A stretch of DNA of 64,000 bases from Candidatus Multivoradales bacterium (GTDB taxonomy: Bacteria; Acidobacteriota; Thermoanaerobaculia; Multivoradales; JAHEKO01), in assembly GCA_965223855.1 (NCBI GenBank), contig CBDCXM010000009.1, forward strand, positions 384,001 to 448,000. Direction: 5' to 3'. The translations under genes were made by a program, and so were the position numbers. Below, piece after piece: positions 5,137 to 37,507 of the stretch. The notes beneath the pieces were generated by a model. That model did not search any database. It saw only the letters and a list, made by a program, of their open reading frames with translations, and was not told where the DNA came from. The stretch's first letter is position 1. Every line of letters begins with the position of its first letter.

Positions 5137-6477
5137 ATGATCCGCAACCTCTCCCGCACGCTCCTCAGCCTCGCAGTTTTCGCCCTCACGGCCGTCCATG
5201 CAGGAGCCGACGACTGGCCGCAGTGGCGCGGCGCCGACCGCGACGGCAAGTCGGCCGAGACCGGGCTTCTCCAGAGCTGGCCGGAGGGCGGCCCGCCGCT
5301 CGCCTGGACGGCGGAAGGGCTCGGAAGCGGCTTCTCGAGCCTCTCGGTCGCCGACGGTCGCATCTATACGCTGGGCGACCTCGAGGACTCGCAGTACGCG
5401 ATCGCCCTGAGCGAAGAGACGGGCGAGATTCTCTGGAAGACCGCCATCGGCCCGTCGTGGGAGGACCGATTCCTCGGGCCCCGCTCGACGCCGACCATCG
5501 ACGGCGACCACGTCTACATCATGAGCACCGAGGGCGACGTGATCTGCCTCGAGGCCGCGACCGGCACCGAGAAATGGCGCCGCAGCCTGCCGAACGACTT
5601 CGAGAGCAACATGATGCAGGCGATGGGGTCGACCGACTGGAAATACTCGGAGTCGCCGCTGGTCGACGGCGACCGGGTGATCGTCACCCCGGGGGTCACG
5701 CCGGCAGCGCTGGTCGCGCTCGACAAGGCCACCGGAGAGACGATCTGGCAGGCGCCGATCGGCCGCATCGGCTCGGCGGGCGCGCACGGCGCCGGCTACT
5801 CGTCGGTGGTGGTCTCGCACGGCGCCGGCGTCAAGCAGTACGTGCAGCTCATCGGCCGCGGAGTGATCGGCATCGAAGCCGAGAGCGGGCGCCATCTGTG
5901 GGGATACAACAGGGTGGCCAACGACATCGCGAACATCCCGACTCCGATCGTCGACGGCGACCATGTGTTCGCGACCACCGGCTACGGCACCGGCGCGGCG
6001 CTGATCCGAATCGTCCCGGCCGAGGAAGGGAGCGAGGACGCCGAGGAGGGAAAGCTCGCCGCCGAGGAGGTCTACTTCCTCGAAGCCGACACCTTCCAGA
6101 ACCATCACGGCGGCGTCATTCTCCACGATGGCTATCTGTACGCGGGCACCGGCCACAATCGGGGGTTCCCGGTGGCGGTCAAGCTGGACGACGGATCGGT
6201 GGCCTGGGGGCCGGAGCGCAACGACGGCAGCGGCTCGGCTGCGGTGGCCTACGCGGACGGGCGGCTCTATTTCCGCTACCAGAACGGGGTGGTGGTGCTG
6301 ATCGAGGCGACGCCGGACGAGTATCGGGAGCACGGCTCGTTCGAGATTCCCGAGGTCGAGCACCCGAGCTGGCCGCATCCGGTGATCTCGGACGGCAAGC
6401 TCTATCTGCGCGAGCAGGACAAGTTGTATGTCTACGACGTGCGGGCGCCGGTGACGGAGGCGGCGGGAGCCTTCTGA
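5137..6477 (+). CDS. Secreted PQQ-like beta-propeller repeat protein
   Basis: ATG at 5137, signal peptide ending AVHAGA, DWPQWRG start, repeated LDxxTGxxxW blades, C-terminal WPHPVISDGKLYLR. Confidence 0.88.
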   Translation: MIRNLSRTLLSLAVFALTAVHAGADDWPQWRGADRDGKSAETGLLQSWPEGGPPLAWTAEGLGSGFSSLSVADGRIYTLGDLEDSQYAIALSEETGEILWKTAIGPSWEDRFLGPRSTPTIDGDHVYIMSTEGDVICLEAATGTEKWRRSLPNDFESNMMQAMGSTDWKYSESPLVDGDRVIVTPGVTPAALVALDKATGETIWQAPIGRIGSAGAHGAGYSSVVVSHGAGVKQYVQLIGRGVIGIEAESGRHLWGYNRVANDIANIPTPIVDGDHVFATTGYGTGAALIRIVPAEEGSEDAEEGKLAAEEVYFLEADTFQNHHGGVILHDGYLYAGTGHNRGFPVAVKLDDGSVAWGPERNDGSGSAAVAYADGRLYFRYQNGVVVLIEATPDEYREHGSFEIPEVEHPSWPHPVISDGKLYLREQDKLYVYDVRAPVTEAAGAF

Positions 6478-6559
6478 GGCTAGTCACCTGGGGCCGGGCG
6501 GGCCTTCGATGAGGAGAGGAACTCGGGTATTTCGAGCGGGGCCTTGCGCCGCTAGAGCC

Positions 6560-6773: not shown

Positions 6774-8090
6774 TCAGGGGGCGGCTTCGGCAACCGTATC
6801 CGCCTCCTCAGCAAGACAATAGAGAGAAGAGGATCCTCGGAGGTAGAGCTCGCTTCCCGCGAGGGCGGGCGAAGCGGCGAAGTCCTCGTCAAGCTGGTTC
6901 TCGGCCAGTACTTCGAACTCGGGGCCGGTGCCGAGGACGACGGTCGTGCCGCCGCGGCCGACGATGTAGATGCGGCCGTCGGCGGCCACGAGGGAGGAGT
7001 AGACGCCGTCGATCCCCGGCAGGCGGACGGGGCCGAAGCGCTTCTCGCCGGTCTTCGCGTCGAGGCTCGTGAGGATGCCGGTGTTGACCTTGAGGAAGTA
7101 GAGCTGGTCGCCGTAGAGGACGGGTGACGGGACATAGGGAGTGTCTTCGTCGTACGACCAGGCGAACTCGTCTTCGGTGCCGGCGGCCTCGGGCCGGATC
7201 GCCTTGAAGGCGGCGCCGCGGAAGCCGCTGGTGGCGTAGACGAGGCCGTTTGCGTAGATCGGCGACGGCACGACGTTGACGGTCTGGCCGCCGACCGCCC
7301 AGCGCTCTTCGCCGGTCGCGAGGTCGTAGCCGCGCACGGCGCCGGTGGCGCTGACGACCACCTCGGTCACGCCGTCGCGCTCGATGACGATCGGGGTCGA
7401 CCACGAGGTGACCTCTTCGCGTTCGTGGCGCCAGCGCTCCTCGCCGCTGGTCTTGTCGAAGACGACGAGGAAGGAGTCGCCCTCGTGATCCCAGTTGAGG
7501 ACGAGCGCGTCGCCCGCGAGCACCGGCGACGAGCCTTCGCCGAAGCCGCGGCGGGTGGCCATGTCACCCAGGTCCTTCGACCACAGAAGGTCGCCCTCGA
7601 GGTCGTAGACGTAGGTGCCCAGCGAGCCGAAGTGGGCGACGAGGACCTCGCCGTCGGTGACCGGCGAAGCCGACGCCCAGGAGGCGTCGGTGTGGGTCCC
7701 CTCGTGCGGTTCTTTCTCGATCGGGACGTGCTCCCACGTCTTCTCGCCGGTCGCCCGGTCATAGGCGAGGACGGTCATCCGCAGCGGGCCGTCGGGAGCG
7801 ACGCCGCGCTGGCCTTCCTGCGGCCCGCTCGGAGCCCGGGTCGGCACCGCGGTGACGACGTAGACGCGCTCGCCCCAGACGATCGGCGAGCCGTGGCCGT
7901 AGCCGGGGATATCGGCCTTCCATCGCACGTTCCTCTCCTCCGACCACTCGAGCGGCGGCTCGGCGTCGGGAGCGGCGCCGCTGGCGAGCGGGCCGCGCCA
8001 CTGCGGCCAGGCGGCCTCTCCGGCTGCGGCGAACGTCGCCGGCGTGAGCGCCAACGCGAGAAGAGCTGCAGTGACTCTGTTCGGTGCCAT
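6774..8090 (-). CDS. Secreted PQQ-like beta-propeller repeat protein
   Basis: ATG at 8090, signal peptide, WPQWRGP, SPIVWGERVYV, YDLATGEERW, ASPALAGSELYLRG. Confidence 0.88.
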   Translation of the reverse strand: MAPNRVTAALLALALTPATFAAAGEAAWPQWRGPLASGAAPDAEPPLEWSEERNVRWKADIPGYGHGSPIVWGERVYVVTAVPTRAPSGPQEGQRGVAPDGPLRMTVLAYDRATGEKTWEHVPIEKEPHEGTHTDASWASASPVTDGEVLVAHFGSLGTYVYDLEGDLLWSKDLGDMATRRGFGEGSSPVLAGDALVLNWDHEGDSFLVVFDKTSGEERWRHEREEVTSWSTPIVIERDGVTEVVVSATGAVRGYDLATGEERWAVGGQTVNVVPSPIYANGLVYATSGFRGAAFKAIRPEAAGTEDEFAWSYDEDTPYVPSPVLYGDQLYFLKVNTGILTSLDAKTGEKRFGPVRLPGIDGVYSSLVAADGRIYIVGRGGTTVVLGTGPEFEVLAENQLDEDFAASPALAGSELYLRGSSSLYCLAEEADTVAEAAP

Positions 8091-8235: not shown

Positions 8236-8787
8236 ATGGCAACTGCTCAGAGTTCCGGCCTCGCGTGGCTGGTCTTCGTGTTCATGACCGTGGCGTCTTG
8301 GGGCGTCTACGGGATCTTCCTTCACAACGGCCAGACGGCGATGGGCGACCCGGTCAACGGGCGCTACAAGGCGTTCCTCTTCGTCGGCGTCGCCTACTTC
8401 CTGACCGCGGTGCTGGCGCCGCTCGTGCTACTGAAGCTCCGCGGCGCCGAGTGGGCGATGCCCGCCTCAGGCATCACCTGGTCTCTGGTGGCGGGGATCG
8501 TCGGCGCCGCCGGGGCGTTCGGCGTGCTGCTCGCCTTCGGCGCCGGCGGCACCCCTGCTTCGGTGATGTCGCTCGTCTTCGCCGGAGCGCCGGTCGTCAA
8601 CGCGATCGTCGCTCTGACCTGGCATCCGCCGGCCGGAGGCATCGGCTCGATCCGCTGGCCGTTCTTTGCAGGCATCGTGCTCGCCGCGCTCGGGGGCTAC
8701 CTCGTGACGGTGTTCAAACCGGCACCGGGACCGGCTCCCGGCTCCCCACCGAAAGCGCCGACCGAGGTCGCCTCGCAGCAGAAATAG
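8236..8787 (+). CDS. Small multi-pass membrane protein (EamA/DMT-like)
   Basis: ATG at 8236 after an AGGAGA RBS. About 5 hydrophobic helices; SWGVYG and VMSLVFAGAPVVNAIV motifs. Confidence 0.75.
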   Translation: MATAQSSGLAWLVFVFMTVASWGVYGIFLHNGQTAMGDPVNGRYKAFLFVGVAYFLTAVLAPLVLLKLRGAEWAMPASGITWSLVAGIVGAAGAFGVLLAFGAGGTPASVMSLVFAGAPVVNAIVALTWHPPAGGIGSIRWPFFAGIVLAALGGYLVTVFKPAPGPAPGSPPKAPTEVASQQK

Positions 8788-8910: not shown

Positions 8911-11121
8911 GTGCCAGCACGAATCAGGACGCTCTTTCTCTTCGCTACGGCGCTCGCGGTCGCCTCGACCACCGTCGCCGGTGACTGGACCCACTGGCGG
9001 GGACCGACCCGCAACGGCGTCTCCCCGGAGACCGGCTTGCTGGAAGCCTGGTCGGCCGAGGGGGAGAACCTGCTGTGGAGGGTCGAGGACTTCATCGGCC
9101 GCTCGACGCCGGTGGTGTTCGGCAACCGGGTGTGCGCCAACGGGCGCGCCGGCGAGGGCGCCGAGCGGCAGGAGATGGTCGCCTGCTTCGATGCCGAGAC
9201 CGGCGAGCGGCTTTGGGAGCGACGGTTCAACGTCTTCCACACCTCGGTGCCGTGGACCCGTGTCGGCTGGGCCAACATCACGGCGGATGCGGAGACCGGC
9301 TATCTCTACGTCCAGGGGGTGGGCGGCCTCTTCCACTGCCTCGACAGTGCCGACGGCAGCATCGTCTGGTCGCGCAACCTGATCGAGGACTTCGGCTTCA
9401 TGGAGGGCTACGGCGGGCGCACCCAGACGCCGGTCGTCGACGAAGACAGGGTCATCGTGACCTTCGCCAACACCAGCTGGGGCGACGAAGGCAGGCCGCT
9501 CCACCGCCTGCGCGCCTTCGACAAGCGGACCGGGGAGCAGCTCTGGGTCGCTTCGCCCGCCAACTCGATGGCCGACAAGAACAGTCAGTCGACGCCGGCG
9601 ATCGCCGTCATCGGCGGGCGGAGGCTGGTGATCCAGGGCAACGGCGGCGGCTGGATCTACGCCGTAGAGGCTCGGACCGGCCGCGAGGTGTGGGGTTTCC
9701 ACCTCAGCCAGCGCGGCATCAACACCTCGGTGCTGGTGGAAGGCACGACGGTCTATGCCATGCACAGCGAGGAGAACGTCGACGAGGGGACGATGGGCCG
9801 AGTGGTGGCGATCGACGCCACCGGTTCGGGCGACGTCACAGCGACCCACGAGCTGTGGCGCTCCGACATCGGCGCCGGCTTCACATCGCCCGCTCTCGCT
9901 GACGGCAAGCTGTTCGTCGTCGACAATTCCGCCAACCTCTACGCCCTCGACCCGGAGACGGGAGAGGAGCTGTGGGAGCTCAACGTCGGTCGTGTCGGCA
10001 AAGGCTCGCCCGTGTGGGCGGACGGCAAGATCTACCTCACCGAGGTCAACGGCCGCTTCGCCATCGTCGATGCGAGCGGCGAGGAAGGGACTCTTCTCGA
10101 CCTCGAGCAGCTGCGCGTCGGGCGCCGCCGGCCGGAGATCTACGGCTCACCGGCGATCGCCAACGGGCGGATCTACTTCACCACCGACGCCGGGCTCTAC
10201 GCACTCGGACAGGGCGACCCGAGCCCGGCGGCGACGGTAGAGCTCGACCTCGAGGAGCCGTCGATCCCCTCCGACACCGCCGCCGCCACGATTCGCGTCG
10301 TCCCGGGCGACCTCCAACTCGCCTTCGGCGAGACGGCCAGCTTCCGGGTGGATGCCTTCGACGAGCTCGGCCGTCGGCTCGGCTCGCGCCAGGCGGAACT
10401 CGCGGTGGAGGGCATCGAAGGCTCGATCGACGGTGACACGCTCACGGCAGGTTCACTGCCGGGCACCGGATCTGTCGTCGCCACCTTCGACGACATGACG
10501 GCGAAGGCCCGGATCCGCGTGGTCCCCTCGATCCCGTTCTCGGAGGACTTCGAGGGTACCGAGACCGGCTCCCGCCCCGGTTACATGCTCGGCTACCTCG
10601 CCCGCTTCGCCGTCGCCGAGCACGACGGCAGCAAGGTGCTCGCCAAGGGGCCGTCGCCGGTCAAGATCCACCGCCACATCACCTTCCTCGGCGCGCCGTG
10701 GCATGACAACTACACCGTCGAGGCGGACCTCAAGGCCGACGCCGAGAACCCCGAGAATCCCGATCTCGGGCTCATCAACGGCGGCTACACCATGGAGCTC
10801 CTCTCGATCGGCGCCCGTCCGGGTGCCCCTCCGGGGCCGAAGCTCCAGGTGCGCTCGTGGCAGGCGGGGCTGCGCATCGCCACCGATATCGAGTTCGACT
10901 GGACACCCGGTACCTGGTACCGGATGAAACTCCGTGTCGATCAGCAGGAAGACTCGGCGCTCATCCGCGGCAAGGTGTGGCCGCGTGGCGAGGACGAGCC
11001 GGCCGACTGGTCGATCGAGGTCACCGACGCACTGCCGATTCTCTCCGGCGCCGCCGGGATCTCCGCCTACTCCCCCTCTTTCGTCTACTTCGACAACTTT
11101 CAGGTGAGTGAGAACGAATGA
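8911..11121 (+). CDS. Secreted PQQ-like beta-propeller protein with Ig-like linker and C-terminal concanavalin/DUF1080-like beta-sandwich
   Basis: AAGGAG RBS and GTG start, signal peptide, DWTHWRGP, many propeller blades. C-terminal PFSEDFE...WYRMKLRV...GKVWPRGEDEP...YFDNFQV. Confidence 0.85.
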   Translation: MPARIRTLFLFATALAVASTTVAGDWTHWRGPTRNGVSPETGLLEAWSAEGENLLWRVEDFIGRSTPVVFGNRVCANGRAGEGAERQEMVACFDAETGERLWERRFNVFHTSVPWTRVGWANITADAETGYLYVQGVGGLFHCLDSADGSIVWSRNLIEDFGFMEGYGGRTQTPVVDEDRVIVTFANTSWGDEGRPLHRLRAFDKRTGEQLWVASPANSMADKNSQSTPAIAVIGGRRLVIQGNGGGWIYAVEARTGREVWGFHLSQRGINTSVLVEGTTVYAMHSEENVDEGTMGRVVAIDATGSGDVTATHELWRSDIGAGFTSPALADGKLFVVDNSANLYALDPETGEELWELNVGRVGKGSPVWADGKIYLTEVNGRFAIVDASGEEGTLLDLEQLRVGRRRPEIYGSPAIANGRIYFTTDAGLYALGQGDPSPAATVELDLEEPSIPSDTAAATIRVVPGDLQLAFGETASFRVDAFDELGRRLGSRQAELAVEGIEGSIDGDTLTAGSLPGTGSVVATFDDMTAKARIRVVPSIPFSEDFEGTETGSRPGYMLGYLARFAVAEHDGSKVLAKGPSPVKIHRHITFLGAPWHDNYTVEADLKADAENPENPDLGLINGGYTMELLSIGARPGAPPGPKLQVRSWQAGLRIATDIEFDWTPGTWYRMKLRVDQQEDSALIRGKVWPRGEDEPADWSIEVTDALPILSGAAGISAYSPSFVYFDNFQVSENE

Positions 11122-12593
11122 ACCGCAACAGCCTCTTCGTCGTCGCCGCTCTCGCGGCTCTGATCGCTCTTCCCGCCATCGCCCAGGACGCGGCGATGTT
11201 CGGCAACGGCCCGCAGCGCAACATGACTTCGGATGCCACCGACCTTCCCACCGAGTGGGACCTGGGGAGCGGCAAGAACGTGCTGTGGAAGCAGCAGCTC
11301 GGTTCGCAGTCCTACGGCGGTCCGGTGCTCTTCGACGACCGCATCTACGTCGGCACCAACAACGAAGCCGAGCGCAACCCGGCGATCACCGGCGACCGCG
11401 GGAACGTGATGGCGTTCAACGCCACCACCGGTGAGTTCCTGTGGCAGGCGGCTCACGCCAAGCTGACCTCGGGCCGGGTGCATGACTGGCCGCTCCAGGG
11501 GGTCTGCGCGGCGCCCTACGTCGAGGGCGACCGCCTCTGGTACGTGTCGAACCGTGCGGAGATCATCGCCGCCGACGTCGACGGCTTCCGCGACGGTGAG
11601 AACGACGGACCGTACACCTCGGAGGAGCACAGCTCCGAGATCGACGAGGATGTGATCTGGAAGGTCGACATGATCGGCGATCTCGACGTCTTCCCGCACA
11701 ACCTGGCCGTCGGCAGCCCGCTGGCTGTCGGCGACAAGCTGTTCATCGTCACCGGCAACGGCGTCGACGAGGGACACATCAACATCCCTTCGCCCGACGC
11801 GCCGAGCTTCCTCGCCGTCGACAAGAACACCGGCGAAGTGCTGTGGACCTCGGACGCACCGGGGCCGAGCATCCTCCACGGCCAGTGGTCGAACCCGGCC
11901 TACGGAGTGATCGGCGGTACGCCTCAGGTGGTCTTCCCCGGCGGTGACGGCTGGCTCTATTCGTTCCACCCCGACTCCGGCGAGCTGCTGTGGAAGTTCG
12001 ACTGCAACCCCAAGGACTCGATCTGGGAGCTCGGCGGCATGGGGACGCGCAACGCGATCATCTCGACGCCGGTGATCCACAACGACCGCGTCTACCTCGG
12101 CGTCGGCCAGGATCCCGAGCACGGCGAAGGGGTCGGCAACTTCTGGGTGATCGACGCGACGAAGCGCGGTGAGCTCGGTGCGGACGCGGTCGTGTGGCAT
12201 CGCGGCGGGGAAGAGTTCGGCCGCACGATCTCGACGGCGGCGATCCACGACGGCATCGTCTACATCGCCGACCTCTCCGGCTTCCTCTACGCCCTCGATG
12301 CCGACACCGGCGAGCACTACTGGACCTACGACGCCTTCGCGGCGGTGTGGGGCTCGGCGTTCGTCGCCGACGGCAAGGTCTACCTCGGTGACGAGGACGG
12401 CGACATCGTGGTGCTCGAGGCCGGCAAGGAGATGAACCTGATCGCCGAGACCAACCTCGGATCGGCGGTCTACACGACGCCGGTGGCGCGCGACGGCACG
12501 CTCTACATCGCCAGCCGCAACATGCTCTTCGCCTTCCAGGAGGGGGCGATGCTCGAGGCCGCCGAGGGCGGCGAAACAGCAGCGGCGCCGTGA
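11118..12593 (+). CDS. Secreted PQQ-like beta-propeller repeat protein
   Basis: ATGA coupling, signal peptide, MFGNGPQRN, NVLWKQQLGSQSYGGPV, LYALDADTGEHYW blades. Confidence 0.88.
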   Translation: MNRNSLFVVAALAALIALPAIAQDAAMFGNGPQRNMTSDATDLPTEWDLGSGKNVLWKQQLGSQSYGGPVLFDDRIYVGTNNEAERNPAITGDRGNVMAFNATTGEFLWQAAHAKLTSGRVHDWPLQGVCAAPYVEGDRLWYVSNRAEIIAADVDGFRDGENDGPYTSEEHSSEIDEDVIWKVDMIGDLDVFPHNLAVGSPLAVGDKLFIVTGNGVDEGHINIPSPDAPSFLAVDKNTGEVLWTSDAPGPSILHGQWSNPAYGVIGGTPQVVFPGGDGWLYSFHPDSGELLWKFDCNPKDSIWELGGMGTRNAIISTPVIHNDRVYLGVGQDPEHGEGVGNFWVIDATKRGELGADAVVWHRGGEEFGRTISTAAIHDGIVYIADLSGFLYALDADTGEHYWTYDAFAAVWGSAFVADGKVYLGDEDGDIVVLEAGKEMNLIAETNLGSAVYTTPVARDGTLYIASRNMLFAFQEGAMLEAAEGGETAAAP

Positions 12594-13666: not shown

Positions 13667-13693
13667 GAGTTGAAAGTCCCCAGGGCGCCGGAA

Positions 13694-13757
13694 ACTACTA
13701 GAAATCTGTAGTTTTCCGTCAAGCCGGCATAACGTAACTACAGTTTTACTGTAGTAT
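13694..13757 (+). promoter_or_regulatory. Twin palindromic operators ACTAC-N9-GTAGT and -10 box of the abiE promoter
   Basis: IR1 13694-13712 (extends to AAACTAC-N9-GTAGTTT). IR2 13737-13755 (ACTACAGT-TTT-ACTGTAGT). TAGTAT at 13752-13757 overlaps IR2. Confidence 0.75.
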
Positions 13758-13763
13758 GGCGTA

Positions 13764-15214: not shown

Positions 15215-15244
15215 GTCCGGCCGGCAAGGCTCGACTCGCCCGAG

Positions 15245-18097: not shown

Positions 18098-18232
18098 CTA
18101 CGTTCTCTTTCCGGAGGGTTGCCGGGTCATACCCAGACTGTGCGAACTGCTGTCGGCGCGCGTCCAGCGGCCCGTTTCGGCAACTGGCGGATGGACAGTG
18201 TCTGAAGAAGCTGTAGCTCTCCGGTCCGTCAA

Positions 18233-18303: not shown

Positions 18304-18330
18304 TGAATCCTCTGGACGCGCGAACGATGG

Positions 18331-21513: not shown

Positions 21514-21572
21514 CGCCGACCCGGGCATCCGGCCGGGTACCCTCTTCTCCCCATACTCGAGGTCGATCACCG

Positions 21573-26724: not shown

Positions 26725-26734
26725 AGGACTTCAC

Positions 26735-28880: not shown

Positions 28881-30119
28881 ATGAAGACGAACTACGACGC
28901 CGTCGTCATCGGCGGCGGCCCCGCGGGCTCGACCGCCGCCACCGTGCTGGCCCAGCACGGCCGCAGCGTCGCTCTCTACGAGCGCTCGGCGACCCCGCAA
29001 TTCAAGGTCGGCGAGTCGCTGATGCCGGCGACCTACTGGATCTTCGAGCGCCTCGGCGTGCTCGACAAGGTGCGCGCGACCTCGTTCCCGCAGAAGCGCA
29101 GCGTCCAGTTCGTCAACTCCGACGGCGACGAGTCGAAGCCGTTCTACTTCCACGAGTTCCGCGACGAAGAGAGCTCGCAGACGTGGCAGGTGAAGCGCAG
29201 CGAGTTCGATGCGCTGCTCGTCGACAACGCGCGCGAGCACGGTGTCGATGTCGCCTGGGGAACGGCGGTGCGAGAGGTGCGCTTCGACGGCGAACGCGCC
29301 GTCGGCGTCACGATCGACCGCGACGGTGAGCCGATCGACGTCGATGCCGGCGTCGTGATCGACGCGAGCGGCCAGAGTGCGTTGATCTCGCGTCGCCTCG
29401 GCCTGCGCGAGTTCGAGCCGAACCTGCGCAACGTCGCCTACTACTCACACTTCGAGGGAGCGCGACTCGACGAGGGGATCGACGGCGGCGCGACGATCAT
29501 CTTCCGCACCTCCGACAGCAAGGCGTGGTTCTGGCTCATCCCGCAGCCGGACGGCATCGCCAGCGTCGGTGTCGTCGGCGGTGTCGATCACCTGGTCGAG
29601 GGACGCGGCGGCGATCCTCAGAAGGTGTTCGAGGAGGAGCTGACGCGTTGCCCGCGGCTCGCCGAGCGGCTGACCGAGGCTCGGCAGACGATGGAGATGA
29701 AGGCGATCCGCGACTTCTCCTACCACTCGCGCCACGCCGCGGGAGACGGCTGGGTGCTGGTCGGTGACGCCTTCGGCTTCATCGACCCGATCTACTCGAG
29801 CGGCGTCTTCCTGGCGATGAAGTCGGGCGAGATGGCCGCAGACGCGATCCAGGAGGCGCTCGCGGCCGACGACACCTCCGCCGCCCGGCTGGGAGCGTTC
29901 GAGAGCGAGCTGCGGCGCGGCACGGAGGCGCTTCGTCAGCTCGTCTACGCCTACTACGACCCGGACTTCTCCGTCGCCGAGTTCCTCGGCCGCTATCCGC
30001 GCTTCCGCAAGGACCTGACCGAGATGCTGATCGGCAACGTCTACCGGGTGCCGATCGACGACTTCGTCGCCGCCCTCGTCGAGCATCGCGAACACACCGC
30101 CGCCGGGGTCGCTTCTTGA
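28881..30119 (+). CDS. Flavin-dependent halogenase-like oxidoreductase
   Basis: GGGPAG, KVGESL, FPQK, WFWLIP (WxWxIP), GDAFGFIDPIYSSGV. Confidence 0.85.
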   Translation: MKTNYDAVVIGGGPAGSTAATVLAQHGRSVALYERSATPQFKVGESLMPATYWIFERLGVLDKVRATSFPQKRSVQFVNSDGDESKPFYFHEFRDEESSQTWQVKRSEFDALLVDNAREHGVDVAWGTAVREVRFDGERAVGVTIDRDGEPIDVDAGVVIDASGQSALISRRLGLREFEPNLRNVAYYSHFEGARLDEGIDGGATIIFRTSDSKAWFWLIPQPDGIASVGVVGGVDHLVEGRGGDPQKVFEEELTRCPRLAERLTEARQTMEMKAIRDFSYHSRHAAGDGWVLVGDAFGFIDPIYSSGVFLAMKSGEMAADAIQEALAADDTSAARLGAFESELRRGTEALRQLVYAYYDPDFSVAEFLGRYPRFRKDLTEMLIGNVYRVPIDDFVAALVEHREHTAAGVAS

Positions 30120-30304
30120 GTCGCGGCCGCGGCCTCTGGATCGCGGCGATCGTGCTGGCGGTGCTGCGCGCCGACCTGTGGTGGTGGCACGAGCCGAGGC
30201 TCGTCCTCGGACTGCCGATCGGCCTCGCCTACCAGGTCGGCTTCTGTCTTCTCGCCGCCGGCGTCATGGCGCTGCTGGCGCGACGACTGCTGCCTGAAGC
30301 ATGA
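30116..30304 (+). CDS. Small two-helix membrane protein (DUF3311-like symporter partner)
   Basis: TTG start coupled on both sides; DLWWWHEPRLVLGLPIGLAYQ; directly precedes an SSS gene. Confidence 0.75.
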   Translation: MSRGRGLWIAAIVLAVLRADLWWWHEPRLVLGLPIGLAYQVGFCLLAAGVMALLARRLLPEA

Positions 30305-31761
30305 CGCTGGCGATCATCGCCGGCTATCTGCTGCTCGTCCTCGGGGTCGGGTGGTGGAGCTCGCGCGCCTTCCGCGGCACGGGCGAGGACTACTTCGTCG
30401 CCACCCGCAGCATCGGCGCGTTACTGCTGCTGGCGTCGCTCTTCGGCACCAACATGACGTCGTTCTCGCTGCTCGGCGCCTCCGGCGAGGCCTACCGGCG
30501 CGGCATCGGAGTCTTCGGCCTCATGGCGTCTTCGACCGCGCTGGTGGCGCCGCTGGTGCTGCTCACCCTCGCTCCGCGCGCCTGGGAGCTCGGCCGCCGC
30601 AACGGCTATCGCACCCAGGTCGAGCTGGTGCGCGATCGCTGGGGGTCGGACACCCTGGGGACGGTGCTCTTCGCCTTTCAGGTGGTCCTGCTGGTGCCGT
30701 ATCTGATGATCGGCATCAAGGGGGGCGGCATCACCCTCGCGCAGATCACCGAGGGAACGGTGCCCGAGTGGGGAGGCTCGCTCGTGATGGTGCTGGTGGT
30801 GCTCGCCTACGTCACCATCGGCGGGCTGCGCGGCACCGCGTGGGCGAACGCGCTGCAGACGATCGTCTTCATGACCCTGGGCGCCCTCACGTTCGTGATC
30901 GTGGTGCACAACTTCGGCGGGCTCACCGCCGCCTTCCAGCGGGTCGCCGAGGCCGAGCCGGCCCTTCTGGTGCGCGGCGAGCGGATCACGCCGGCCGAGT
31001 TCCTCGGCTACCTGGCGGTGCCGCTGTCGGCGGTCGGGTTCCCGCACCTCTTCCTCCACTGGCTGACGGCACGCGATCGGGCGAGCTTCCGGCTGCCGGT
31101 GATCGCCTACCCGCTGTGCCTCGCCGCGGTGTGGCTGCCGAGCGTGTCGATCGGCGTCCTCGGGGCGGTCGACTTCCCCGGCCTCGAGGGGCCGCAGTCG
31201 AACTCGGTGCTGATCCTGATGATCGGCGAGCACGCGCCGGCGGTGCTGGCCGGCTTTCTCGCCGCCGGCGTGCTCGCCGCGGTGATGTCGTCGCTCGACT
31301 CACAGAGTCTCGCGCTCGCCAACATGTTCACGCGCGACGTCGTGAAACACTACCGGGGCGGCCTGAGCGACCGACTCGAGGTGCTCGCCGGCCGCGGTTT
31401 CGTGGTGCTGGTGCTGGCCGTGACCTTCGTGCTCTCCATCGTCGTCGACCGCAGTCTCTTCCGCCTCGGCGTGTGGTCGTTCAGCGGCTTCGCCGCGCTC
31501 ACCCCACTGATGGTGGGCGCGCTCTTCTGGCGTCGCTGCACCCTCGCCGGTGCCGCCGCCTCGCTCGCCGCCGCCATCGGCACCTGGAGCGTCTTCTTCG
31601 CCCAGGGCCACGACGTTCCCGGGTTCAAGGTCGCCGGAGTGCCGCCGGTGGTGATCGTCCTCGGCGCAGCGGCCGTCGCGCTCGTCGCCGGCTCGTGGAT
31701 CGGACGCACCGGAGACGAGCGCGTCGAGCGCTTCTTCCCGGCGGACGGAGATCAGGTTTGA
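30301..31761 (+). CDS. Sodium:solute symporter (SSS) family protein
   Basis: EDYFVATRSIG, YVTIGGLRGTAW, AAVMSSLDS; about 13 TM helices. Confidence 0.92.
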   Translation: MTLAIIAGYLLLVLGVGWWSSRAFRGTGEDYFVATRSIGALLLLASLFGTNMTSFSLLGASGEAYRRGIGVFGLMASSTALVAPLVLLTLAPRAWELGRRNGYRTQVELVRDRWGSDTLGTVLFAFQVVLLVPYLMIGIKGGGITLAQITEGTVPEWGGSLVMVLVVLAYVTIGGLRGTAWANALQTIVFMTLGALTFVIVVHNFGGLTAAFQRVAEAEPALLVRGERITPAEFLGYLAVPLSAVGFPHLFLHWLTARDRASFRLPVIAYPLCLAAVWLPSVSIGVLGAVDFPGLEGPQSNSVLILMIGEHAPAVLAGFLAAGVLAAVMSSLDSQSLALANMFTRDVVKHYRGGLSDRLEVLAGRGFVVLVLAVTFVLSIVVDRSLFRLGVWSFSGFAALTPLMVGALFWRRCTLAGAAASLAAAIGTWSVFFAQGHDVPGFKVAGVPPVVIVLGAAAVALVAGSWIGRTGDERVERFFPADGDQV

Positions 31762-31774: not shown

Positions 31775-33094
31775 ATGAGGATCGCCTACATCGCCGCCGG
31801 CGCCGGGGGGATGTACTGCGGCAGCTGCCTCCACGACAACGCGCTCGCCGCCGCCCTGCAGCGCGCGGGTCACGACGTGGCGCTCCTGCCGACCTACACG
31901 CCGCTCAAGACCGACGAAGCGAACGTCAGCGACGAGCGGGTCTTCTACGGTGCGCTCAACGTCTACCTGCAGCAGAAGTCGAAGCTCTTCCGCCGCACCC
32001 CGCGATTTCTCGACCGGCTGCTCGACAGCCGGCGACTGCTCGGCTGGATCTCGAAGCTCGGTGCCTCGACCGACCCGAGCGAGCTCGGCGACCTGACGCT
32101 CGACATGCTGCGCGGTGAAGAGGGGGCGCAAGCCAAGGAGCTCGATCGCCTCGTCACCTGGCTGGCCGACGACTACCGCCCCGAGATCGTCGTCCTTACC
32201 AACTCGCTGCTGCTCGGTCTCGCGAAGCGTCTCAAGGAGACGCTGGGTGTGCCGGTGGTGGTCGTCCTCCAGGGAGAGGATCTCTTCGTCGACGGTCTGA
32301 AGGAGCCGTTGCGCGAAGCGGTGCGCGCCGAGATGCAGCGCCGCGCCGCCGACCCCGACCTGTTCCTCGCACCGAGCCGCTACTACGCCGGCCTGATGGC
32401 CCAGCGGCTCGCCGTTGCCGAGCAGCGGATCGCCGTCGTGCCGCTCGGCATCGAGCTCACCGACTATCGCAAAGCGCCGCCCCGGGAAGGGCCGCCGACG
32501 ATCGGCTTCCTCGCCCGCAACGCGCCGGAGAAGGGGCTCCACAACCTGATCGAGGCCTTCGTCACCCTCGCCGAGCGGGACAAGACGCTGCGCCTGCGGA
32601 TCGCCGGCTACCAGAGTGCGGTCGATCGCGACTACATCGACGAGCAACGACGGACGGTGCGCGATGCCGGTCTCGACGACCGGGTCGAGTTTCTGGGGGA
32701 GATCGACCGCGACGCGAAGCTCGCCTTCCTGCACTCGATCGATCTGCTCTGCGTGCCGACCACCTACGCCGAGCCGAAGGGGCGCTTCGTGCTCGAAGCG
32801 ATGGCGAGCGGCGTCCCGGTGCTCGTTCCCGACCATGGGTCGTTCCCGGAGCTGATCGAATCGACCGGCGGCGGCGCCCTGTGCGAGCCGCAGTCTCCGA
32901 CCGCGTTGGTGACGTCTCTGGAGGCACTCCTCGCCGACCGGGACGAGCGGGGGCGGCTCGCCGCTCGCGGGCACGAGTCGGTGCATCGCGACCGCGGCGC
33001 CGACGCCATGGCCGTCGCCACTGCCCGGGTCCTCGAGGCGCTGCTGACACAGGCGGCTCCGGAGGCGGAGCTGCCGGTGGAGAAGAGCGCTTGA
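31775..33094 (+). CDS. Glycosyltransferase family 4 protein with an N-terminal CxxC
   Basis: GAGGMYCGSCLHDN, PEKGLHNL, EPKGRFVLEAMASGVPV (Ex7E). Confidence 0.88.
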   Translation: MRIAYIAAGAGGMYCGSCLHDNALAAALQRAGHDVALLPTYTPLKTDEANVSDERVFYGALNVYLQQKSKLFRRTPRFLDRLLDSRRLLGWISKLGASTDPSELGDLTLDMLRGEEGAQAKELDRLVTWLADDYRPEIVVLTNSLLLGLAKRLKETLGVPVVVVLQGEDLFVDGLKEPLREAVRAEMQRRAADPDLFLAPSRYYAGLMAQRLAVAEQRIAVVPLGIELTDYRKAPPREGPPTIGFLARNAPEKGLHNLIEAFVTLAERDKTLRLRIAGYQSAVDRDYIDEQRRTVRDAGLDDRVEFLGEIDRDAKLAFLHSIDLLCVPTTYAEPKGRFVLEAMASGVPVLVPDHGSFPELIESTGGGALCEPQSPTALVTSLEALLADRDERGRLAARGHESVHRDRGADAMAVATARVLEALLTQAAPEAELPVEKSA

Positions 33095-33525
33095 GCGAGC
33101 CGATCTCGGAGTTCCGGACCCGCCGCCGGGTCGAATTCGCCGACACCGATCTCGCCGGCCTGGTGCACTTCGCCCGCTTCTTCGTCTTCATGGAGACCGC
33201 CGAGCACGAGCTGCTGCGCTCACTCGGCACCGAGGTCCACCGCCAGTGGGAGGGCCACGAGATCGGCTGGCCGCGGGTCAAAGCGACCTGCGAGTATCGC
33301 AAGGCGGCGCGCTTCGCCGACGTGCTCGACATCACCGTCACGATCGCCCGCAAGGGCGAGCGGTCGATGACCTACCGGATCGAGTTCAGCCGCGACGGCG
33401 AGCGGATCGCGGTCGGCGAGACGACCGCTGTGTGTTGCGTCGTCGACGAGCCCGGCGGTCCCCGCTCGATCCCGATCCCCTCCGATATCGCCGATCGGCT
33501 GGTGGAGACGGGGAGTTCCGCGTGA
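33091..33525 (+). CDS. Acyl-CoA thioesterase (hot-dog fold)
   Basis: TTG start overlapping the upstream TGA; RVEFADTDLAGLVHFARFFVFMETAEH. Confidence 0.88.
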   Translation: MSEPISEFRTRRRVEFADTDLAGLVHFARFFVFMETAEHELLRSLGTEVHRQWEGHEIGWPRVKATCEYRKAARFADVLDITVTIARKGERSMTYRIEFSRDGERIAVGETTAVCCVVDEPGGPRSIPIPSDIADRLVETGSSA

Positions 33526-34196
33526 GTCGCCTGGTGCTGGAAGCGGTGACCAAGACCTTCGGCGACGGGCCGACGGCCGTGGAGGTGCTGCGCGGAGTCG
33601 ATCTCGCCCTCGACGCCGACGACAGCGTCGCCGTCACCGGGCCGTCGGGCTCCGGCAAGAGCACGCTGCTCCACATCGTCGGCACCCTCGAGGCACCGAC
33701 GTCGGGGCGGGTCGTCCTCGACGGCGAGGACCCGTTCACCCGTCGCGATACGGAGCTGGCGCGCTACCGCAACCGCACGGTCGGCTTCGTCTTCCAGGAT
33801 CACCACCTGCTCCCCCAGTACACCGTGCTCGAGAACGTGCTGCTGCCGACCCTCGCCTTCCCGCCGGCCGACGAGGAGGCTGAAGATCGGGCTCGCGAGC
33901 TCCTGGAGCGGGTCGGCCTCGGACACCGGCTCGGGCATCGCCCGGCGGAGATCTCGGGCGGCGAACGGCAGCGTGCCGCGGTGGCGAGAGCGCTGGTGCA
34001 GCAGCCGACGCTGCTCTTGTGTGACGAGCCGACCGGGAATCTCGATCACGCCAACGCCATGTCGGTCGCCGATCTGCTGCTCGAGCTGCAACGCGAGATG
34101 GAGGCGCTGCTGGTCGTCGTCACCCACAGTGACGAGCTGGCGGCGCGCTTCGCTCGTCGGGTCCGGCTCGCCGAAGGCCGATGCGTCGCAGCCTGA
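33522..34196 (+). CDS. ABC transporter ATP-binding protein (LolD/MacB-like)
   Basis: GTGA coupling; GPSGSGKST, ISGGERQR, LLCDEPTGNLD, VTH. Confidence 0.93.
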   Translation: MSRLVLEAVTKTFGDGPTAVEVLRGVDLALDADDSVAVTGPSGSGKSTLLHIVGTLEAPTSGRVVLDGEDPFTRRDTELARYRNRTVGFVFQDHHLLPQYTVLENVLLPTLAFPPADEEAEDRARELLERVGLGHRLGHRPAEISGGERQRAAVARALVQQPTLLLCDEPTGNLDHANAMSVADLLLELQREMEALLVVVTHSDELAARFARRVRLAEGRCVAA

Positions 34197-37100
34197 CCCA
34201 CTACCGGCGCACTCATCTCGCCGTCCTCGCCGCCGCTGCGGTGACGACCGCGGTCCTCACCGGTGCCCTGCTGGTCGGCGACTCGCTACGCGGCAGCCTG
34301 CGCGAGCTCGCCCTCGGCCGGCTCGGTAAGGTCGACTGGGCGGTCCTGGCGGAGCGCCCGTTCCGGCAGCGGCTCGCCGGCGAACTGGCGGTTCTCGACG
34401 GTGTGACGGCAGTCCCCGCTCTGACGGTCCGCGGTTCGGCGACCGCCGCCGAAAGCGGCGCCCGAGCCAGCACCGTGGCGCTGTGGGGAGTGCCCGAGAG
34501 CTTCGGCGAGCTCCAACCTGAGCTGGCCGCTCTCGATCTCGCCGCACGCAGCGGACCCTTCCCGTCGGCCGCCGTCAGCCACGCCCTCGCGACCGAGCTG
34601 GGAGTCGAACCCGGCTCCCAGCTGGTGCTTTCGTTCCAACGGCCGAGCGACGTACCACGCGAGACGATCGTCGGGCGCGACGACACCGACGACACCATCG
34701 AGACGCTGCGCGTCACGGTCACCGACGTCCTTCCCGATCGTGGCGCAGGCGGCTTCGGCCTCGAGCCGAGTCAGGGCAGGCCGCTGACGGTCTACGTCGC
34801 TCTCGACAGGCTCCAGCGCGCGCTCCTCGGCCGCGGCTCCGACCGCGTCAATGCAGTCCTCGGGGCCGGTGGCACGACGCAGGCCGTCGAGGCCGCGTTG
34901 CCGGGGCTCCTCGACCTCGACGACCTCGGTCTGAAGCTGCGCCAAGCTCCCGAGGCGGTGACGGTGGAGAGCCGACAGTTCGTCCTCGATCCACAGCGCG
35001 AGGCGGCCATCGAGGAGGCGGCGCGGAGCCTGGGTTCGCCGACGATGCCGGTCCTCACCTACATGGCGAACGCACTGAGCGCAGGGGAACGCTCGGTGCC
35101 CTACTCGACGATCTCGGCGCTCGACGCTCCCGGCGATCCGGCACTGGGCAGGCTGACTCTCGTCGACGGCCGATCCGCCCCCCGGCTCACCGACTCGCAG
35201 ATCCTGCTCGACGCCTGGAGCGCCGCCGAGCTCGAGGCGGAACCGGGCGACACCGTGACGGTCGAGTACTACCAGCTCGGAGCGTTCGACGAGCTGACGA
35301 CCGTCGAACATGCCTTCGAGCTCGCCGGGATCGTCGCCATGGAAGGGCTGGCGACCGACCGCGACCTCACGCCCGAGTTCCCGGGCATCGAGGACGCCGA
35401 CGACATCTCGGCCTGGGATCCGCCCTTCCCCGTCGATCTGGACACGATCCGACCGCAGGACGAAGCGTACTGGGACGACTACCGGGCCGCCCCCAAGGCA
35501 TTCGTCGGCCTCGAGCTCGGCAAGCGCCTGTGGCAGAGCCGCTTCGGCACCCTCACCGGACTGCGGGTCGGCCTGGGGGCGAGCCAGCCGGACTGGGAGG
35601 ACGCGGGCGTCGGTGCCTTCACCGCCGCGCTCGTAGAACGCCTCTCCCCCGCCGCCGCCGGCTTCGGCGTCCACCCGCTGCGCGATGCCGCCACCCGGGC
35701 GGCGAGCGGAGCGACCGATTTCGCCGGACTGTTCCTGGGTTTGAGCATGTTCCTGATCGCTTCCGCGGCACTGGTGGTCGGCCTGGTGTTCCGGCTCGGC
35801 GTCGAGCAGCGGGCGCGCGAGATCGGCCTGCTGCGCGCGGTCGGCTTCCCCGCCGGCCGGGTGCGACGGCGCTTCCTCGGCGAGGGGCTGGCGATCGCCG
35901 CCCTCGGCGCCCTCCTCGGCAGCCTCGGAGGAATCGCCTACGCATGGGCGCTGCTGGCGGGGCTGCGCACCTGGTGGCTGCCGGCGATCGGCGAGCCGGT
36001 GCTGTTCCTTCATCTGCGAGCGGTAACGCTCGTCATCGGCGCGCTCGCCGCCATGGCGGTCATCGCAGTCGCGATCCTCGCCGCGCTGCGACGGCTCGGA
36101 CGCCAGTCGACGGTCGGCCTGCTCGCCGGCAGCGTCGCCGGCGCGCGGCCGAGCGGCTCGCGCAAGCCGCTGCTGGTGGCTGCCGCGGCTCTCGGGCTGG
36201 CCGTCGCGGCGACCGCTTTCGCCGCGACCCTCGATGCACGTGAGGCGGCGGGTCTCGCCTTCGTCGTCGGTGCGCTGCTACTGGTCGCCGGTATCGCCGC
36301 CTTCGCCTGGAGGAGCGGCCGCGCGGCGACCTCCCCCAATCGCCTCGGTACCGGCAGCACCTTCGCCGTGGCGGCCCGCGACAGCGCTCGCTCCCGCGGC
36401 CGCAGTCTTCTGAGCGTTGCACTCATGTCGTCGGCGGCGTTCGTCATCGTGGTCGTTGCCGCCAACCGTGTGCACGCCCCCGTCGACGTCCGCGAGCGGA
36501 CTTCGGGCGCAGGCGGTTTCACCCTCGTCGCCGAGGCCGACGTACCGATTCTCGGCACCCTCGAGGGCGAGGGAGAGGCGGTGGCGACGCTCCTCGACGG
36601 CGTCGAGACGGTGCCGTTCCGCCTGCTGCCGGGCGAGGACGTGTCGTGTCTCAACCTCTACAAGCCGGAGCGGCCGCGCCTGCTCGGCGTACCGCCGGCG
36701 ATGCAGGAACGGGGCGGCTTCACCTTCCAGCAGACGAGCGTCGAGACCGAGGATCCGTGGTCGCTCCTCGACCTCGAGCTCGAGGACGGGGTGATCCCCG
36801 CCTTCGGCGATGCGAACTCGGTGCTTTGGATCCTCCACTCCGGCCTCGGCCAGGACCTCGAGCTCGAGAACGAGCGTGGGGAGCCGATCCGGCTGCGCTT
36901 CGTCGGTCTGCTGTCGAAGAGCGTCTTTCAGAGTGAGGTGCTGATCGGCGAGGAGGCGTTCCGGCGCCACTTCCCGAGCCGCTCCGGCTACGCCTGGTTC
37001 CTGCTCGATGCGCCGCCCGATCGCGCACCGCAGCTGGCGACCGATCTCGAGCAGCAGCTCTCGCGCCACGGCTTCGACGCGGTCTCGACCGCCGAGCGGC

Positions 37101-37507
37101 TGGCGGCTTTCCAGGCTGTGGAGTCGACGTATCTGTCGACCTTCCAGACCCTCGGCGGGCTAGGGCTCATTCTCGGCACTCTGGGGCTCGGCATCGTCCT
37201 GTTGCGCAACGTCCTCGAACGGCGCGCCGAGCTGGCGACGCTGCGCGCCATCGGCTACCCGCGCGCCCGGCTGCAGCGGCGGGTGCTGGCGGAGAACGCC
37301 TACCTGCTACTGATCGGGCTCGGTATCGGCACCGCAGCCGGAGCGATCGCCGCCGCCCCCCATCTGGCGCTCGCCGGCGCCGCGCCGCCGTGGCTGCCGC
37401 TCGCCGCCACCCTCGGTGCGATCTTCATCGTCGGCATGCTCTCGAGCCTGATGGCGGTGCGGGCCGTGGCGAAGATGCCGCTCGTGGGATCGCTGCGCGC
37501 CTCCTAA
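34181..37507 (+). CDS. Large ABC transporter permease (duplicated FtsX/MacB type)
   Basis: TGALLVGDSLRGSL; two FtsX-type blocks (EQRAREIGLLRAVG, ERRAELATLRAIG); large periplasmic loops. Confidence 0.88.
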   Translation: MRRSLTHYRRTHLAVLAAAAVTTAVLTGALLVGDSLRGSLRELALGRLGKVDWAVLAERPFRQRLAGELAVLDGVTAVPALTVRGSATAAESGARASTVALWGVPESFGELQPELAALDLAARSGPFPSAAVSHALATELGVEPGSQLVLSFQRPSDVPRETIVGRDDTDDTIETLRVTVTDVLPDRGAGGFGLEPSQGRPLTVYVALDRLQRALLGRGSDRVNAVLGAGGTTQAVEAALPGLLDLDDLGLKLRQAPEAVTVESRQFVLDPQREAAIEEAARSLGSPTMPVLTYMANALSAGERSVPYSTISALDAPGDPALGRLTLVDGRSAPRLTDSQILLDAWSAAELEAEPGDTVTVEYYQLGAFDELTTVEHAFELAGIVAMEGLATDRDLTPEFPGIEDADDISAWDPPFPVDLDTIRPQDEAYWDDYRAAPKAFVGLELGKRLWQSRFGTLTGLRVGLGASQPDWEDAGVGAFTAALVERLSPAAAGFGVHPLRDAATRAASGATDFAGLFLGLSMFLIASAALVVGLVFRLGVEQRAREIGLLRAVGFPAGRVRRRFLGEGLAIAALGALLGSLGGIAYAWALLAGLRTWWLPAIGEPVLFLHLRAVTLVIGALAAMAVIAVAILAALRRLGRQSTVGLLAGSVAGARPSGSRKPLLVAAAALGLAVAATAFAATLDAREAAGLAFVVGALLLVAGIAAFAWRSGRAATSPNRLGTGSTFAVAARDSARSRGRSLLSVALMSSAAFVIVVVAANRVHAPVDVRERTSGAGGFTLVAEADVPILGTLEGEGEAVATLLDGVETVPFRLLPGEDVSCLNLYKPERPRLLGVPPAMQERGGFTFQQTSVETEDPWSLLDLELEDGVIPAFGDANSVLWILHSGLGQDLELENERGEPIRLRFVGLLSKSVFQSEVLIGEEAFRRHFPSRSGYAWFLLDAPPDRAPQLATDLEQQLSRHGFDAVSTAERLAAFQAVESTYLSTFQTLGGLGLILGTLGLGIVLLRNVLERRAELATLRAIGYPRARLQRRVLAENAYLLLIGLGIGTAAGAIAAAPHLALAGAAPPWLPLAATLGAIFIVGMLSSLMAVRAVAKMPLVGSLRAS

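Follow-up and report, generated by a model that had tools for sequence, protein, structure and literature searches.

The stretch of DNA analysed here, 64,000 nucleotides of a Candidatus Multivoradales genome (Acidobacteriota; GCA_965223855.1, contig CBDCXM010000009.1, positions 384,001 to 448,000) and called the window below, harbours a conserved gene cluster in which a rare two-protein acid reductase is tied to secreted beta-propeller proteins. Sequence comparison indicates that the two proteins likely form an EhpF/EhpG-type pair, which would activate a carboxylic acid with ATP and reduce it to the aldehyde. Three further observations are new: where the cluster is present, PQQ_2 propellers are expanded genome-wide, and most of these genomes lack PqqC; one of the cluster's propellers, propeller 4, has enzyme-like invariant motifs; and in other lineages toxin-antitoxin, defence or mobile genes are repeatedly found as cargo at the junction of the two reductase genes. 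The whole is best explained by an operon that reduces and tailors an acid and whose product would be exported, handled by the propellers and recaptured as a metallophore is, a reading that we favour tentatively and that falls a little short of being probable.

The adenylating member of the pair, the EhpF-like protein (358 amino acids, aa), matches the EhpF structures 3l2k/3hgu in the PDB with E=1.7e-44 over residues 17-358 and is 31 % identical to EhpF of a Pantoea plasmid (E=3e-48); its AMP-binding Pfam match is weak (26.8 bits, cut-off 29.9). On this Pantoea agglomerans plasmid, phzA/B, D, E, F and G of the ehp cluster precede an AMP-binding gene that overlaps with a gene of the aldehyde dehydrogenase (ALDH) family. 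The ALDH-like protein of the window is 27 % identical over 414 aa (E=2e-29) to the product of that last gene. Its catalytic Cys lies in GGRSCVNASG and aligns with the ALDH active-site Cys, a His stands at the position of the general-base Glu, and the motifs GGxxCVxAS and Glu-less GPGxSKVV are common to this protein and EhpG. An ALDH-like enzyme with the Cys but without the general-base Glu fits a reductase. The initial annotation, made from the sequence alone, had assigned the two proteins to the GriC/EhpF and GriD/EhpG types, and both assignments hold up. GriC adenylates and GriD then reduces 3-amino-4-hydroxybenzoic acid (3,4-AHBA), according to passages of PMC10179220. A Streptomyces plasmid match (H8) lacks a GriD-like neighbour.

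Within the window (G+C 0.64-0.73), reading frames were picked by third-position G+C and then by family matches. The cluster genes lie in two runs, the first comprising propeller 3, propeller 4 and the EhpF-like gene (8911-13666) and the second reaching from the ALDH-like gene through the FtsX permease (21573-37507). Most neighbouring cluster genes are joined by a four-base start/stop overlap (11118/11121, 12590/12593, 25390/25393, 30116/30119, 30301/30304, 33091/33094 and 33522/33525), so that the tight coupling described in the initial annotation is real. The separateness of its two runs is not: the intervening 7.9 kb, judged by the encoded families, represent an inserted island of an AbiE toxin-antitoxin pair and a type III-like restriction-modification system, which had gone unseen, and both runs would be one operon-like cluster split in this genome. 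We regard it as one interrupted operon because the EhpF-like and ALDH-like genes abut in relatives and the genes between them here are defence genes. In the same-genus genomes G001-G003 the island is missing and the two genes abut, with a TGATG stop/start overlap in G001; counting all examined relatives, they abut in 16 of 20, the exceptions being G022 (rearranged), G027, G031 and G038.

G+C dips to 0.64-0.66 at 12-16 kb, and the island contains no integrase or transposase. Contigs of run X1 span both island junctions without mismatch and one of X4 (another sample of the same study) spans the left junction; as these contigs may derive from the reads behind the assembly, they exclude a binning artefact only. 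No empty-site form was found among the X1 and X4 contigs, where the listed joints, with only 20-35 letters on a side, appear to be noise. A consensus scan of 13500-21700 revealed no sigma-70-like site. Just before abiEi, at window 13692-13755, there are two inverted repeats, AAACTAC-N9-GTAGTTT and ACTACAGT-N3-ACTGTAGT, which presumably resemble operator sites for AbiEi autoregulation.

The gap between the EhpF-like and ALDH-like genes varies in other lineages as well. Of 55 loci with both genes, 25 have a gap of no more than 280 bases and 30 one of 435 bases or more. In 16 Poribacteria loci it contains a gene for a Vgb-lyase-like propeller, and the loci are not independent. Under looser criteria, the gap exceeds 400 bases in 33 of 61 loci, compared with 11/47, 15/50, 6/35, 2/22 and 1/22 for other junctions. 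According to scans of the inserted open reading frames (ORFs; 57 of 81 by Pfam, 28 by PADLOC), toxin-antitoxin, defence or mobile genes are present in no fewer than 11 of the 30 gaps that are long. The cargo comprises ParE-like (L059, L063), Gp49/HI1420 (L064), PIN (L089), RHH (L084) and AbiEi proteins (L082, L085), a PDC-S01/DUF4143 ATPase (L072, L077, L086), a NucC-like nuclease with an IS630 transposase (L085) and a methylase fragment (L068). Accessory cargo that lodges repeatedly between conserved, normally overlapping genes makes this junction a clean natural example. Toxin-antitoxin genes in 'Halo_AMP' clusters are also remarked on in parts of a preprint (10.64898/2026.08.03.742642).

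The cluster is widely conserved, and its arrangement goes beyond chance. Of the conditions that the initial annotation named as refuting it, neither scattered homologs without shared gene order nor a lack of co-occurrence with the propellers was observed. Of 41 genomes of the order, 27 have the EhpF-like gene (64-88 % identity), and the gene order propeller 3-propeller 4-EhpF-ALDH-iron-containing alcohol dehydrogenase (Fe-ADH)-propeller 5-HemN-(propeller)-TonB-dependent receptor-halogenase-sodium:solute symporter (SSS)-glycosyltransferase family 4 (GT4)-thioesterase-(ABC-FtsX) is kept in 14 genomes of the order and in loci of other phyla, interrupted at various points by unrelated genes such as those for LeuRS, MgsA or glutaminase. 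Protein searches returned at least 8000 homologs, many of them 75-80 % identical and labelled hypothetical. In GTDB species genomes, 574 of 588 candidate EhpF-like stretches were confirmed, corresponding to at least 574 genomes of about eight phyla; the hosts belong to Acidobacteriota, Latescibacterota, Poribacteria, Calditrichota, Gemmatimonadota, Planctomycetota, Verrucomicrobiota and unclassified bins. The spread is patchy: in a sample of 301 Acidobacteriota genomes, which takes in the unpublished G062 as one EhpF-negative genome, the gene is present in 73 genomes and 48 of 192 genera.

A quick tree of 77 EhpF-like rows resolved three clades: one is the Blastocatellia short form, one unites Planctomycetota, Verrucomicrobiota and Bryobacteraceae, and the third, with 55 rows from five intermingled phyla, is the long form. 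At least four label changes are required for Acidobacteriota on this tree, and the branching fits, without proving it, a transfer of the long form between phyla. The short form consists of EhpF-ALDH-GT4-ABC-FtsX plus propellers; therefore the reductase, GT4, pump and propellers look like the core of the system. A cultured carrier, Schlesneria sp. T3-172 (L043), has at least the EhpF, ALDH and propeller genes of this core. In the complete genome G031 all parts are kept without physical linkage: the EhpF-like gene lies at C1 4602659, 3.4 Mb from the propeller 4 and HemN-like genes (1126936-1132296), and an ALDH-like gene is a few kb from EhpF on the opposite strand. Around the cluster, 80 loci show recurrent accessory genes that are mainly lineage-specific neighbours (peptidase M19, sulfatase, PhyH, DUF362, LeuRS), none of which indicates a substrate.

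The initial annotation had proposed that presence of the cluster might correlate with the number of propeller paralogs, and this was observed. EhpF is found in 27 of the 41 relatives, propeller 4 in 26, the HemN-like gene in 29, and EhpF together with propeller 4 in 25. The EhpF carriers without propeller 4 are two incomplete genomes (77 % and 62 % complete), and G040 has propeller 4 without EhpF. PQQ_2 matches per genome (E<=1e-10) ranged from 10 to 42 (median 20) in the 27 EhpF-positive relatives; the 14 without EhpF had 0 to 11 (median 0.5), seven of them none. In the 301-genome sample, at least 22 first-look propeller candidates were present in 73 of 73 carriers and in 22 of 228 non-carriers by hand count, these candidate numbers being proxies and not gene counts (nine candidates per genome were scored) from related genomes that are not independent; 80 genomes were without any propeller match. 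PqqC was detected in 14 of the 301 genomes and in 4 of the 73 carriers. The genome of the window itself gave no PqqC match, though the controls were silent in that search; the query was validated by its positives in the phylum run.

All five propellers of the window start with a signal peptide. Propeller 3, whose C-terminal extension (10201-11121) has no Pfam match, has syntenic orthologs at 43-58 % identity. Across 29 sequences of several phyla, propeller 4 keeps 59-73 % identity as well as the invariant motifs DWPxQGxC, FPHN, GVDExH, HGxWxN, QDPEHGE and DEDGD, rich in His, Asp, Glu and Cys and not found in the other four propellers of the window. Its AlphaFold2 model (pLDDT 85) is eight-bladed with BamB as the closest solved structure, ahead of tetrathionate hydrolase and PQQ dehydrogenases, and a search of the ESM Atlas returned other PQQ_2 clusters and nothing else. 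Taken together, propeller 4 looks the most enzyme-like of the five. The propellers match the NCBIfam model 'acido-empty-quinoprotein' weakly; an assignment to PQQ-dependent alcohol dehydrogenase (TIGR03075) was rejected at 20-95 bits against a cut-off of 480. A selenocysteine in propeller 4 was likewise dismissed, the apparent internal TGAs being terminal stops. In a Latescibacterota locus (L086, 8536-9954), propeller 4 has a TAG at an invariant Trp codon; either a pseudogene or an error in sequencing may explain this.

In G002, G003 and most relatives a further propeller gene lies between the HemN-like gene and the TonB receptor (L117 10940-12085; L118 9933-11093). It is missing from the window, where only 10 bases separate the two genes (26724-26735); its best match in this genome is 48 % identical and about 2.8 Mb away. 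Sixteen Poribacteria loci (L048-L050, L055-L064, L067, L068, L078) have a Vgb-lyase/SGL-like propeller of about 230 aa between EhpF and ALDH, which may be a lineage-specific member of the system. Propeller 1 has a 73 % ortholog in the same upstream block of the same-genus G002, and propeller 2 has orthologs of 64-71 % in G002 and G003; genes like the latter border short-form clusters. Orthologs of the small membrane protein gene labelled DMT-like (81-82 %) lie immediately upstream of propeller 3 in G002 and G003, and it is present in six other loci, among them the short forms L040, L105 and L112. In the divergent region between propeller 2 and this gene, a GTACAC(T) stretch at window 8163-8171 is common to three same-genus genomes (L113, L114), beyond which upstream footprinting of the three found nothing shared.

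Pfam, NCBIfam and PDB comparisons confirmed all gene classes named in the initial annotation at or near their coordinates; the DUF3311 label is its own, given to a small ORF that is conserved in G002 and G003. Its flavoenzyme, described as halogenase-like, is by its motifs a true flavin-dependent halogenase. It matches solved halogenases (8zop at 2e-62; Mpy16, CmlS, CndH, PltA, Bmp2) with E values of 1e-50 to 1e-62, is nearest to phenol- and pyrrole-type enzymes, and its GGGPAGS, Lys72 and WFWLIP align with the FAD-binding GxGxxG, the catalytic Lys and the WxWxIP of 8zop and 5buk.

The radical S-adenosylmethionine (SAM) enzyme resembles HemN (1e-39) and the methyltransferase NocN (4e-28) among PDB structures. 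HemN has a fourth Cys in the motif CxxxCxxCxC. The protein of the window reads CRKRCKFCYF (CxxxCxxCxF), without that Cys, and scores 189 bits with the hemN model (cut-off 325) and below the cut-offs for HutW and HemW; an identity as coproporphyrinogen III oxidase was rejected and the enzyme is termed HemN-like.

Among the transporters, the TonB receptor exceeds the siderophore-subfamily cut-off of TIGR01783 (247.6 bits, cut-off 223.5), and the symporter has PanF, PutP and MctP as nearest NCBIfam models, all under cut-off. The ATP-binding cassette (ABC) ATPase scores 256 bits with LolD and 203 bits with YbbA, both under cut-off. For the thioesterase, TIGR00051 gave 66.7 bits, slightly below the cut-off of 68.7. 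Only the donor-binding (C-terminal) half of the GT4 matches solved GT4s (PimA, MshA, BshA); its N-terminus (window 31775-31850) bears GMYCGSCxHDN with two Cys, invariant in 12 of 12 aligned orthologs and unlike the acceptor-side loops of the matched structures.

From these enzymes we infer what class of substrate is used, in which order the steps follow, which way transport runs and what the propellers do, as follows. A carboxylic acid, which the hotdog thioesterase may release from a CoA thioester, would be activated with ATP and reduced to the aldehyde by the EhpF/EhpG-type pair, and Fe-ADH would convert the aldehyde to the alcohol. The flavin halogenase would halogenate the product, the HemN-like radical SAM enzyme may modify it and the GT4 may glycosylate it. 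With the help of the LolD/MacB-type ABC system the product would reach the periplasm, where four to five secreted propellers may bind or process it, and the siderophore-type TonB receptor together with the DUF3311/SSS symporter could re-import the compound, either as such or in a complex. Overall, this would be a cycle of making, exporting, processing and recapturing like that of a metallophore.

Several points speak against this metallophore-like cycle. MacB/Lol-type pumps act on substrates that are already in the periplasm or the outer leaflet, which does not account for passage of the product across the inner membrane. The short form indicates that the halogenase, Fe-ADH, radical SAM enzyme, TonB receptor and symporter are not essential to the core chemistry, and the 70-77 % identity of EhpF-like proteins between phyla is unusually high for an enzyme of secondary metabolism. 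A supply of substrate by chorismate lyase, AHBA synthase, polyketide synthase (PKS) or nonribosomal peptide synthetase (NRPS) is not encoded in the cluster, nor were a flavin reductase, a carrier protein or a metal-regulatory site found at it, and an Rfam scan of 1-42000 gave nothing at gathering score. In this genome, moreover, the island cuts the ALDH gene and all downstream genes off from the upstream promoter.

The distribution of the propellers raises a second explanation, in which the cluster makes a derivative of an aryl aldehyde or alcohol that is delivered to the periplasm as a prosthetic group or ligand for secreted 'empty' PQQ-like propellers in bacteria without PQQ synthesis, with the TonB receptor serving for salvage. 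PqqU and BtuB are TonB receptors that salvage their cofactors in this way. We consider such a cofactor supply unlikely. It would agree with the high PQQ_2 counts of EhpF-positive and the low counts of EhpF-negative relatives and with the phylum sample, with the rarity of PqqC among carriers (4 of 73), with the invariant His/Asp/Glu/Cys motifs of propeller 4 and with the weak 'acido-empty-quinoprotein' matches. On the other hand, the propellers stay far below the 480-bit cut-off of true PQQ dehydrogenases and the model of propeller 4 is nearest to the cofactor-less BamB. In the phylum sample, 22 EhpF-negative genomes are likewise propeller-rich, G035 has 11 matches without the cluster, the counts come from related genomes and first-look candidates, and neither a glycosyltransferase nor an optional halogenase would be expected for a cofactor. 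In its boldest form that the co-occurrence data allow, a new small-molecule cofactor derived from a reduced and tailored carboxylic acid would be sent to the periplasm and arm the 'empty quinoprotein' family in bacteria without PQQ synthesis; we hold this to be rather improbable, and if true, it would explain the dozens of propellers in genomes with the cluster.

The product could instead be a secreted halogenated natural product, an antibiotic or signalling aryl glycoside, with a TonB receptor for self-resistance or uptake and the propellers as accessories. The nearest characterised relatives of the reductase pair act in antibiotic pathways, the spread over genera is patchy (48 of 192), and parts of preprint 10.64898/2026.08.03.742642 treat similar halogenase and AMP-binding clusters from sponge metagenomes as natural-product clusters. 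This is quite unlikely in our view, given the very high sequence conservation across phyla, the retention of the cluster in 27 of 41 genomes of one order and a halogenase that is dispensable in many loci. Four distinct propeller orthogroups in fixed positions also argue for a core role of these proteins.

An outer-membrane importer and a monocarboxylate-type (PanF/MctP-like) symporter within a cluster that has no acid-making gene would also suit an uptake system, in which an environmental carboxylic acid is taken in, reduced or detoxified by the cytoplasmic enzymes and handled by the propellers in the periplasm. This is very unlikely: an ATP-dependent reduction of an acid to the alcohol is not usual in catabolism, ring-cleavage or beta-oxidation genes were not found at the cluster, the GT4, thioesterase and ABC exporter suggest synthesis, and the short form does without both importers.

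Finally, a reduction of fatty acids to fatty alcohols in the manner of LuxE/LuxC, followed by glycosylation and DevA/DevC-like export of an envelope glycolipid as for heterocyst glycolipids, would find support in the ABC ATPase (DevA family 158 bits), the weakly DevC-like permease, a GT4 donor domain like that of the lipid-glycosylating PimA and a short form of reductase, GT4 and pump, but is highly improbable, since LuxE/LuxC gave no match even at E<=5 (Pfam lists AMP-binding and Aldedh alone), the pair belongs with EhpF/EhpG, whose substrates are aryl acids, a membrane-fusion protein is absent and the halogenase is nearest to phenol- and pyrrole-type enzymes.

Table 1. Genes of the cluster and of the island that splits it (window positions).
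Feature	Position	Strand	Evidence
Propeller 1, secreted PQQ_2/BamB-like beta-propeller	5137..6477	+	PQQ_2 7e-31; signal peptide from internal Met
Propeller 2, secreted PQQ_2 propeller, divergent	6774..8090	-	PQQ_2 7e-21; signal peptide
Small DMT-like membrane protein	8236..8787	+	DMT-like label read from sequence
Propeller 3, secreted, C-terminal extension of ~300 aa	8911..11121	+	PQQ_2 9e-33; signal peptide
Propeller 4, most conserved propeller, enzyme-like in appearance	11118..12593	+	signal peptide; invariant motifs; AlphaFold2 model
Putative EhpF/GriC-type adenylating enzyme, ANL core without C-terminal subdomain, 358 aa	12590..13666	+	PDB EhpF match
Inserted defence island	13667..21572	.	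AbiEi, AbiEii, type III-like methylase, BPTD_3080 endonuclease
AbiEi	13764-14351	+	Pfam AbiEi_4; PADLOC 227 bits
AbiEii	14348-15214	+	Pfam AbiEii; PADLOC 248 bits
Type III-like DNA methylase, 950 aa	15245-18097	-	Pfam N6_N4_Mtase; PADLOC MTase_III 955 bits
BPTD_3080 restriction endonuclease	18331-21357	-	Pfam ResIII; NF046055 1157 bits (cut-off 800)
Putative EhpG/GriD-type ALDH-fold reductase partner	21573..22997	+	Aldedh 2e-11
Iron-containing alcohol dehydrogenase	23026..24291	+	Fe-ADH 1e-46 and ADH_Fe_C; under all NCBIfam equivalog cut-offs
Propeller 5, secreted	24275..25393	+	Beta-prop_ACSF4 243 bits (cut-off 133); PQQ_2 9e-47; signal peptide from Met at 24275
HemN-like (class C type) radical SAM enzyme	25390..26724	+	Radical_SAM and HemN_C
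TonB-dependent receptor, siderophore subfamily	26735..28849	+	plug and barrel; TIGR01783
Flavin-dependent halogenase	28881..30119	+	PDB halogenases; Lys72; WFWLIP
Small membrane protein, labelled DUF3311-like in the initial annotation	30116..30304	+	ORF read from sequence; conserved in G002, G003
Sodium:solute symporter (SSS)	30301..31761	+	SSF 2e-37
GT4 glycosyltransferase	31775..33094	+	Glycos_transf_1 5e-32
Hotdog (4HBT/YbgC-like) thioesterase	33091..33525	+	4HBT_2 1e-12; TTG start overlapping GT4 stop
LolD/MacB-type ABC ATPase	33522..34196	+	ABC_tran 5e-33
Permease, 1108 aa, two FtsX domains	34181..37507	+	FtsX 3e-23 in two stretches

Outside the cluster, the window contains a second pair of a small membrane protein (DUF4212) and an SSS symporter (42408-44539, minus strand), a delta-class carbonic anhydrase (54667-55560) and a 1013-aa protein with a Ser/Thr kinase domain fused to an FGE-sulfatase-like domain (56266-59307, plus strand). 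In agreement with the initial annotation, Pfam scans of the large ORFs of the window detected no PKS, NRPS, phz or pqq families.

The importance of the cluster lies in its extent: the order of its 15-19 genes is preserved in no fewer than 574 species genomes from about eight phyla, most of them uncultured, and the system occurs in about a quarter of the sampled Acidobacteriota and has no known product. Solving it would give a function to thousands of 'hypothetical' genes and may lead to a new envelope-directed metabolite, metallophore or cofactor.

The reductase pair has known counterparts in Pantoea agglomerans, where EhpF/EhpG belong to the cluster for D-alanylgriseoluteic acid, a phenazine, and in Streptomyces griseus, where GriC/GriD take part in grixazone synthesis; these likewise pair an ANL enzyme of about 360 aa that lacks the C-terminal subdomain with a following Glu-less ALDH that keeps the Cys. 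The genes of the pair abut in relatives as they do in Pantoea, whereas 7906 bases separate them in the window. In contrast to the known pairs, with which identity is 27-31 %, the pair studied here is set among secreted propellers, a TonB receptor, a radical SAM enzyme and an ABC pump, and the window is without genes for phenazine or 3,4-AHBA synthesis.

The island shares the AbiEi and AbiEii pair and the two inverted repeats before abiEi with AbiE type IV toxin-antitoxin systems. As in type III restriction-modification, a large Mod-like methylase stands beside a helicase-type BPTD_3080 endonuclease, and unlike either system the island is lodged precisely at the border of two biosynthetic genes that normally overlap.

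Metallophore systems with periplasmic maturation, e.g. that of pyoverdine, unite a cytoplasmic precursor, a MacB-type pump, periplasmic tailoring and a TonB receptor of the siderophore type in one locus. Here, no NRPS or NRPS-independent siderophore (NIS) synthetase and no Fur-type site were found, and the periplasmic proteins are BamB-like propellers.

Similar in gene content is the 'Halo_AMP' pseudoclass of sponge and seawater metagenome clusters, for which the relevant passages of a bioRxiv preprint (10.64898/2026.08.03.742642) give no product. These clusters likewise contain a flavin halogenase, an AMP-binding enzyme, PQQ-like, radical SAM and TonB proteins, a glycosyltransferase, a thioesterase and toxin-antitoxin genes, and their hosts, as given there, include Acidobacteriota, Latescibacterota and Poribacteria. 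The claim of an undescribed pathway in the initial annotation stands insofar as literature searches found no characterised cluster of this architecture, and needs qualifying insofar as similar clusters are already listed in parts of that preprint. The pseudoclass is defined there by a detection rule (Trp_halogenase and AMP-binding domains close together) and not by homology, the adenylating enzymes are taken as phenylacetate-CoA-ligase-like, and the passages concerned are without the reductase partner, the co-expansion of propellers and the insertion hotspot. Applied to the window, the rule meets a Trp_halogenase match of 104 bits and an AMP-binding match below cut-off (26.8 bits, cut-off 29.9), in genes that lie 15.2 kb apart because of the island.

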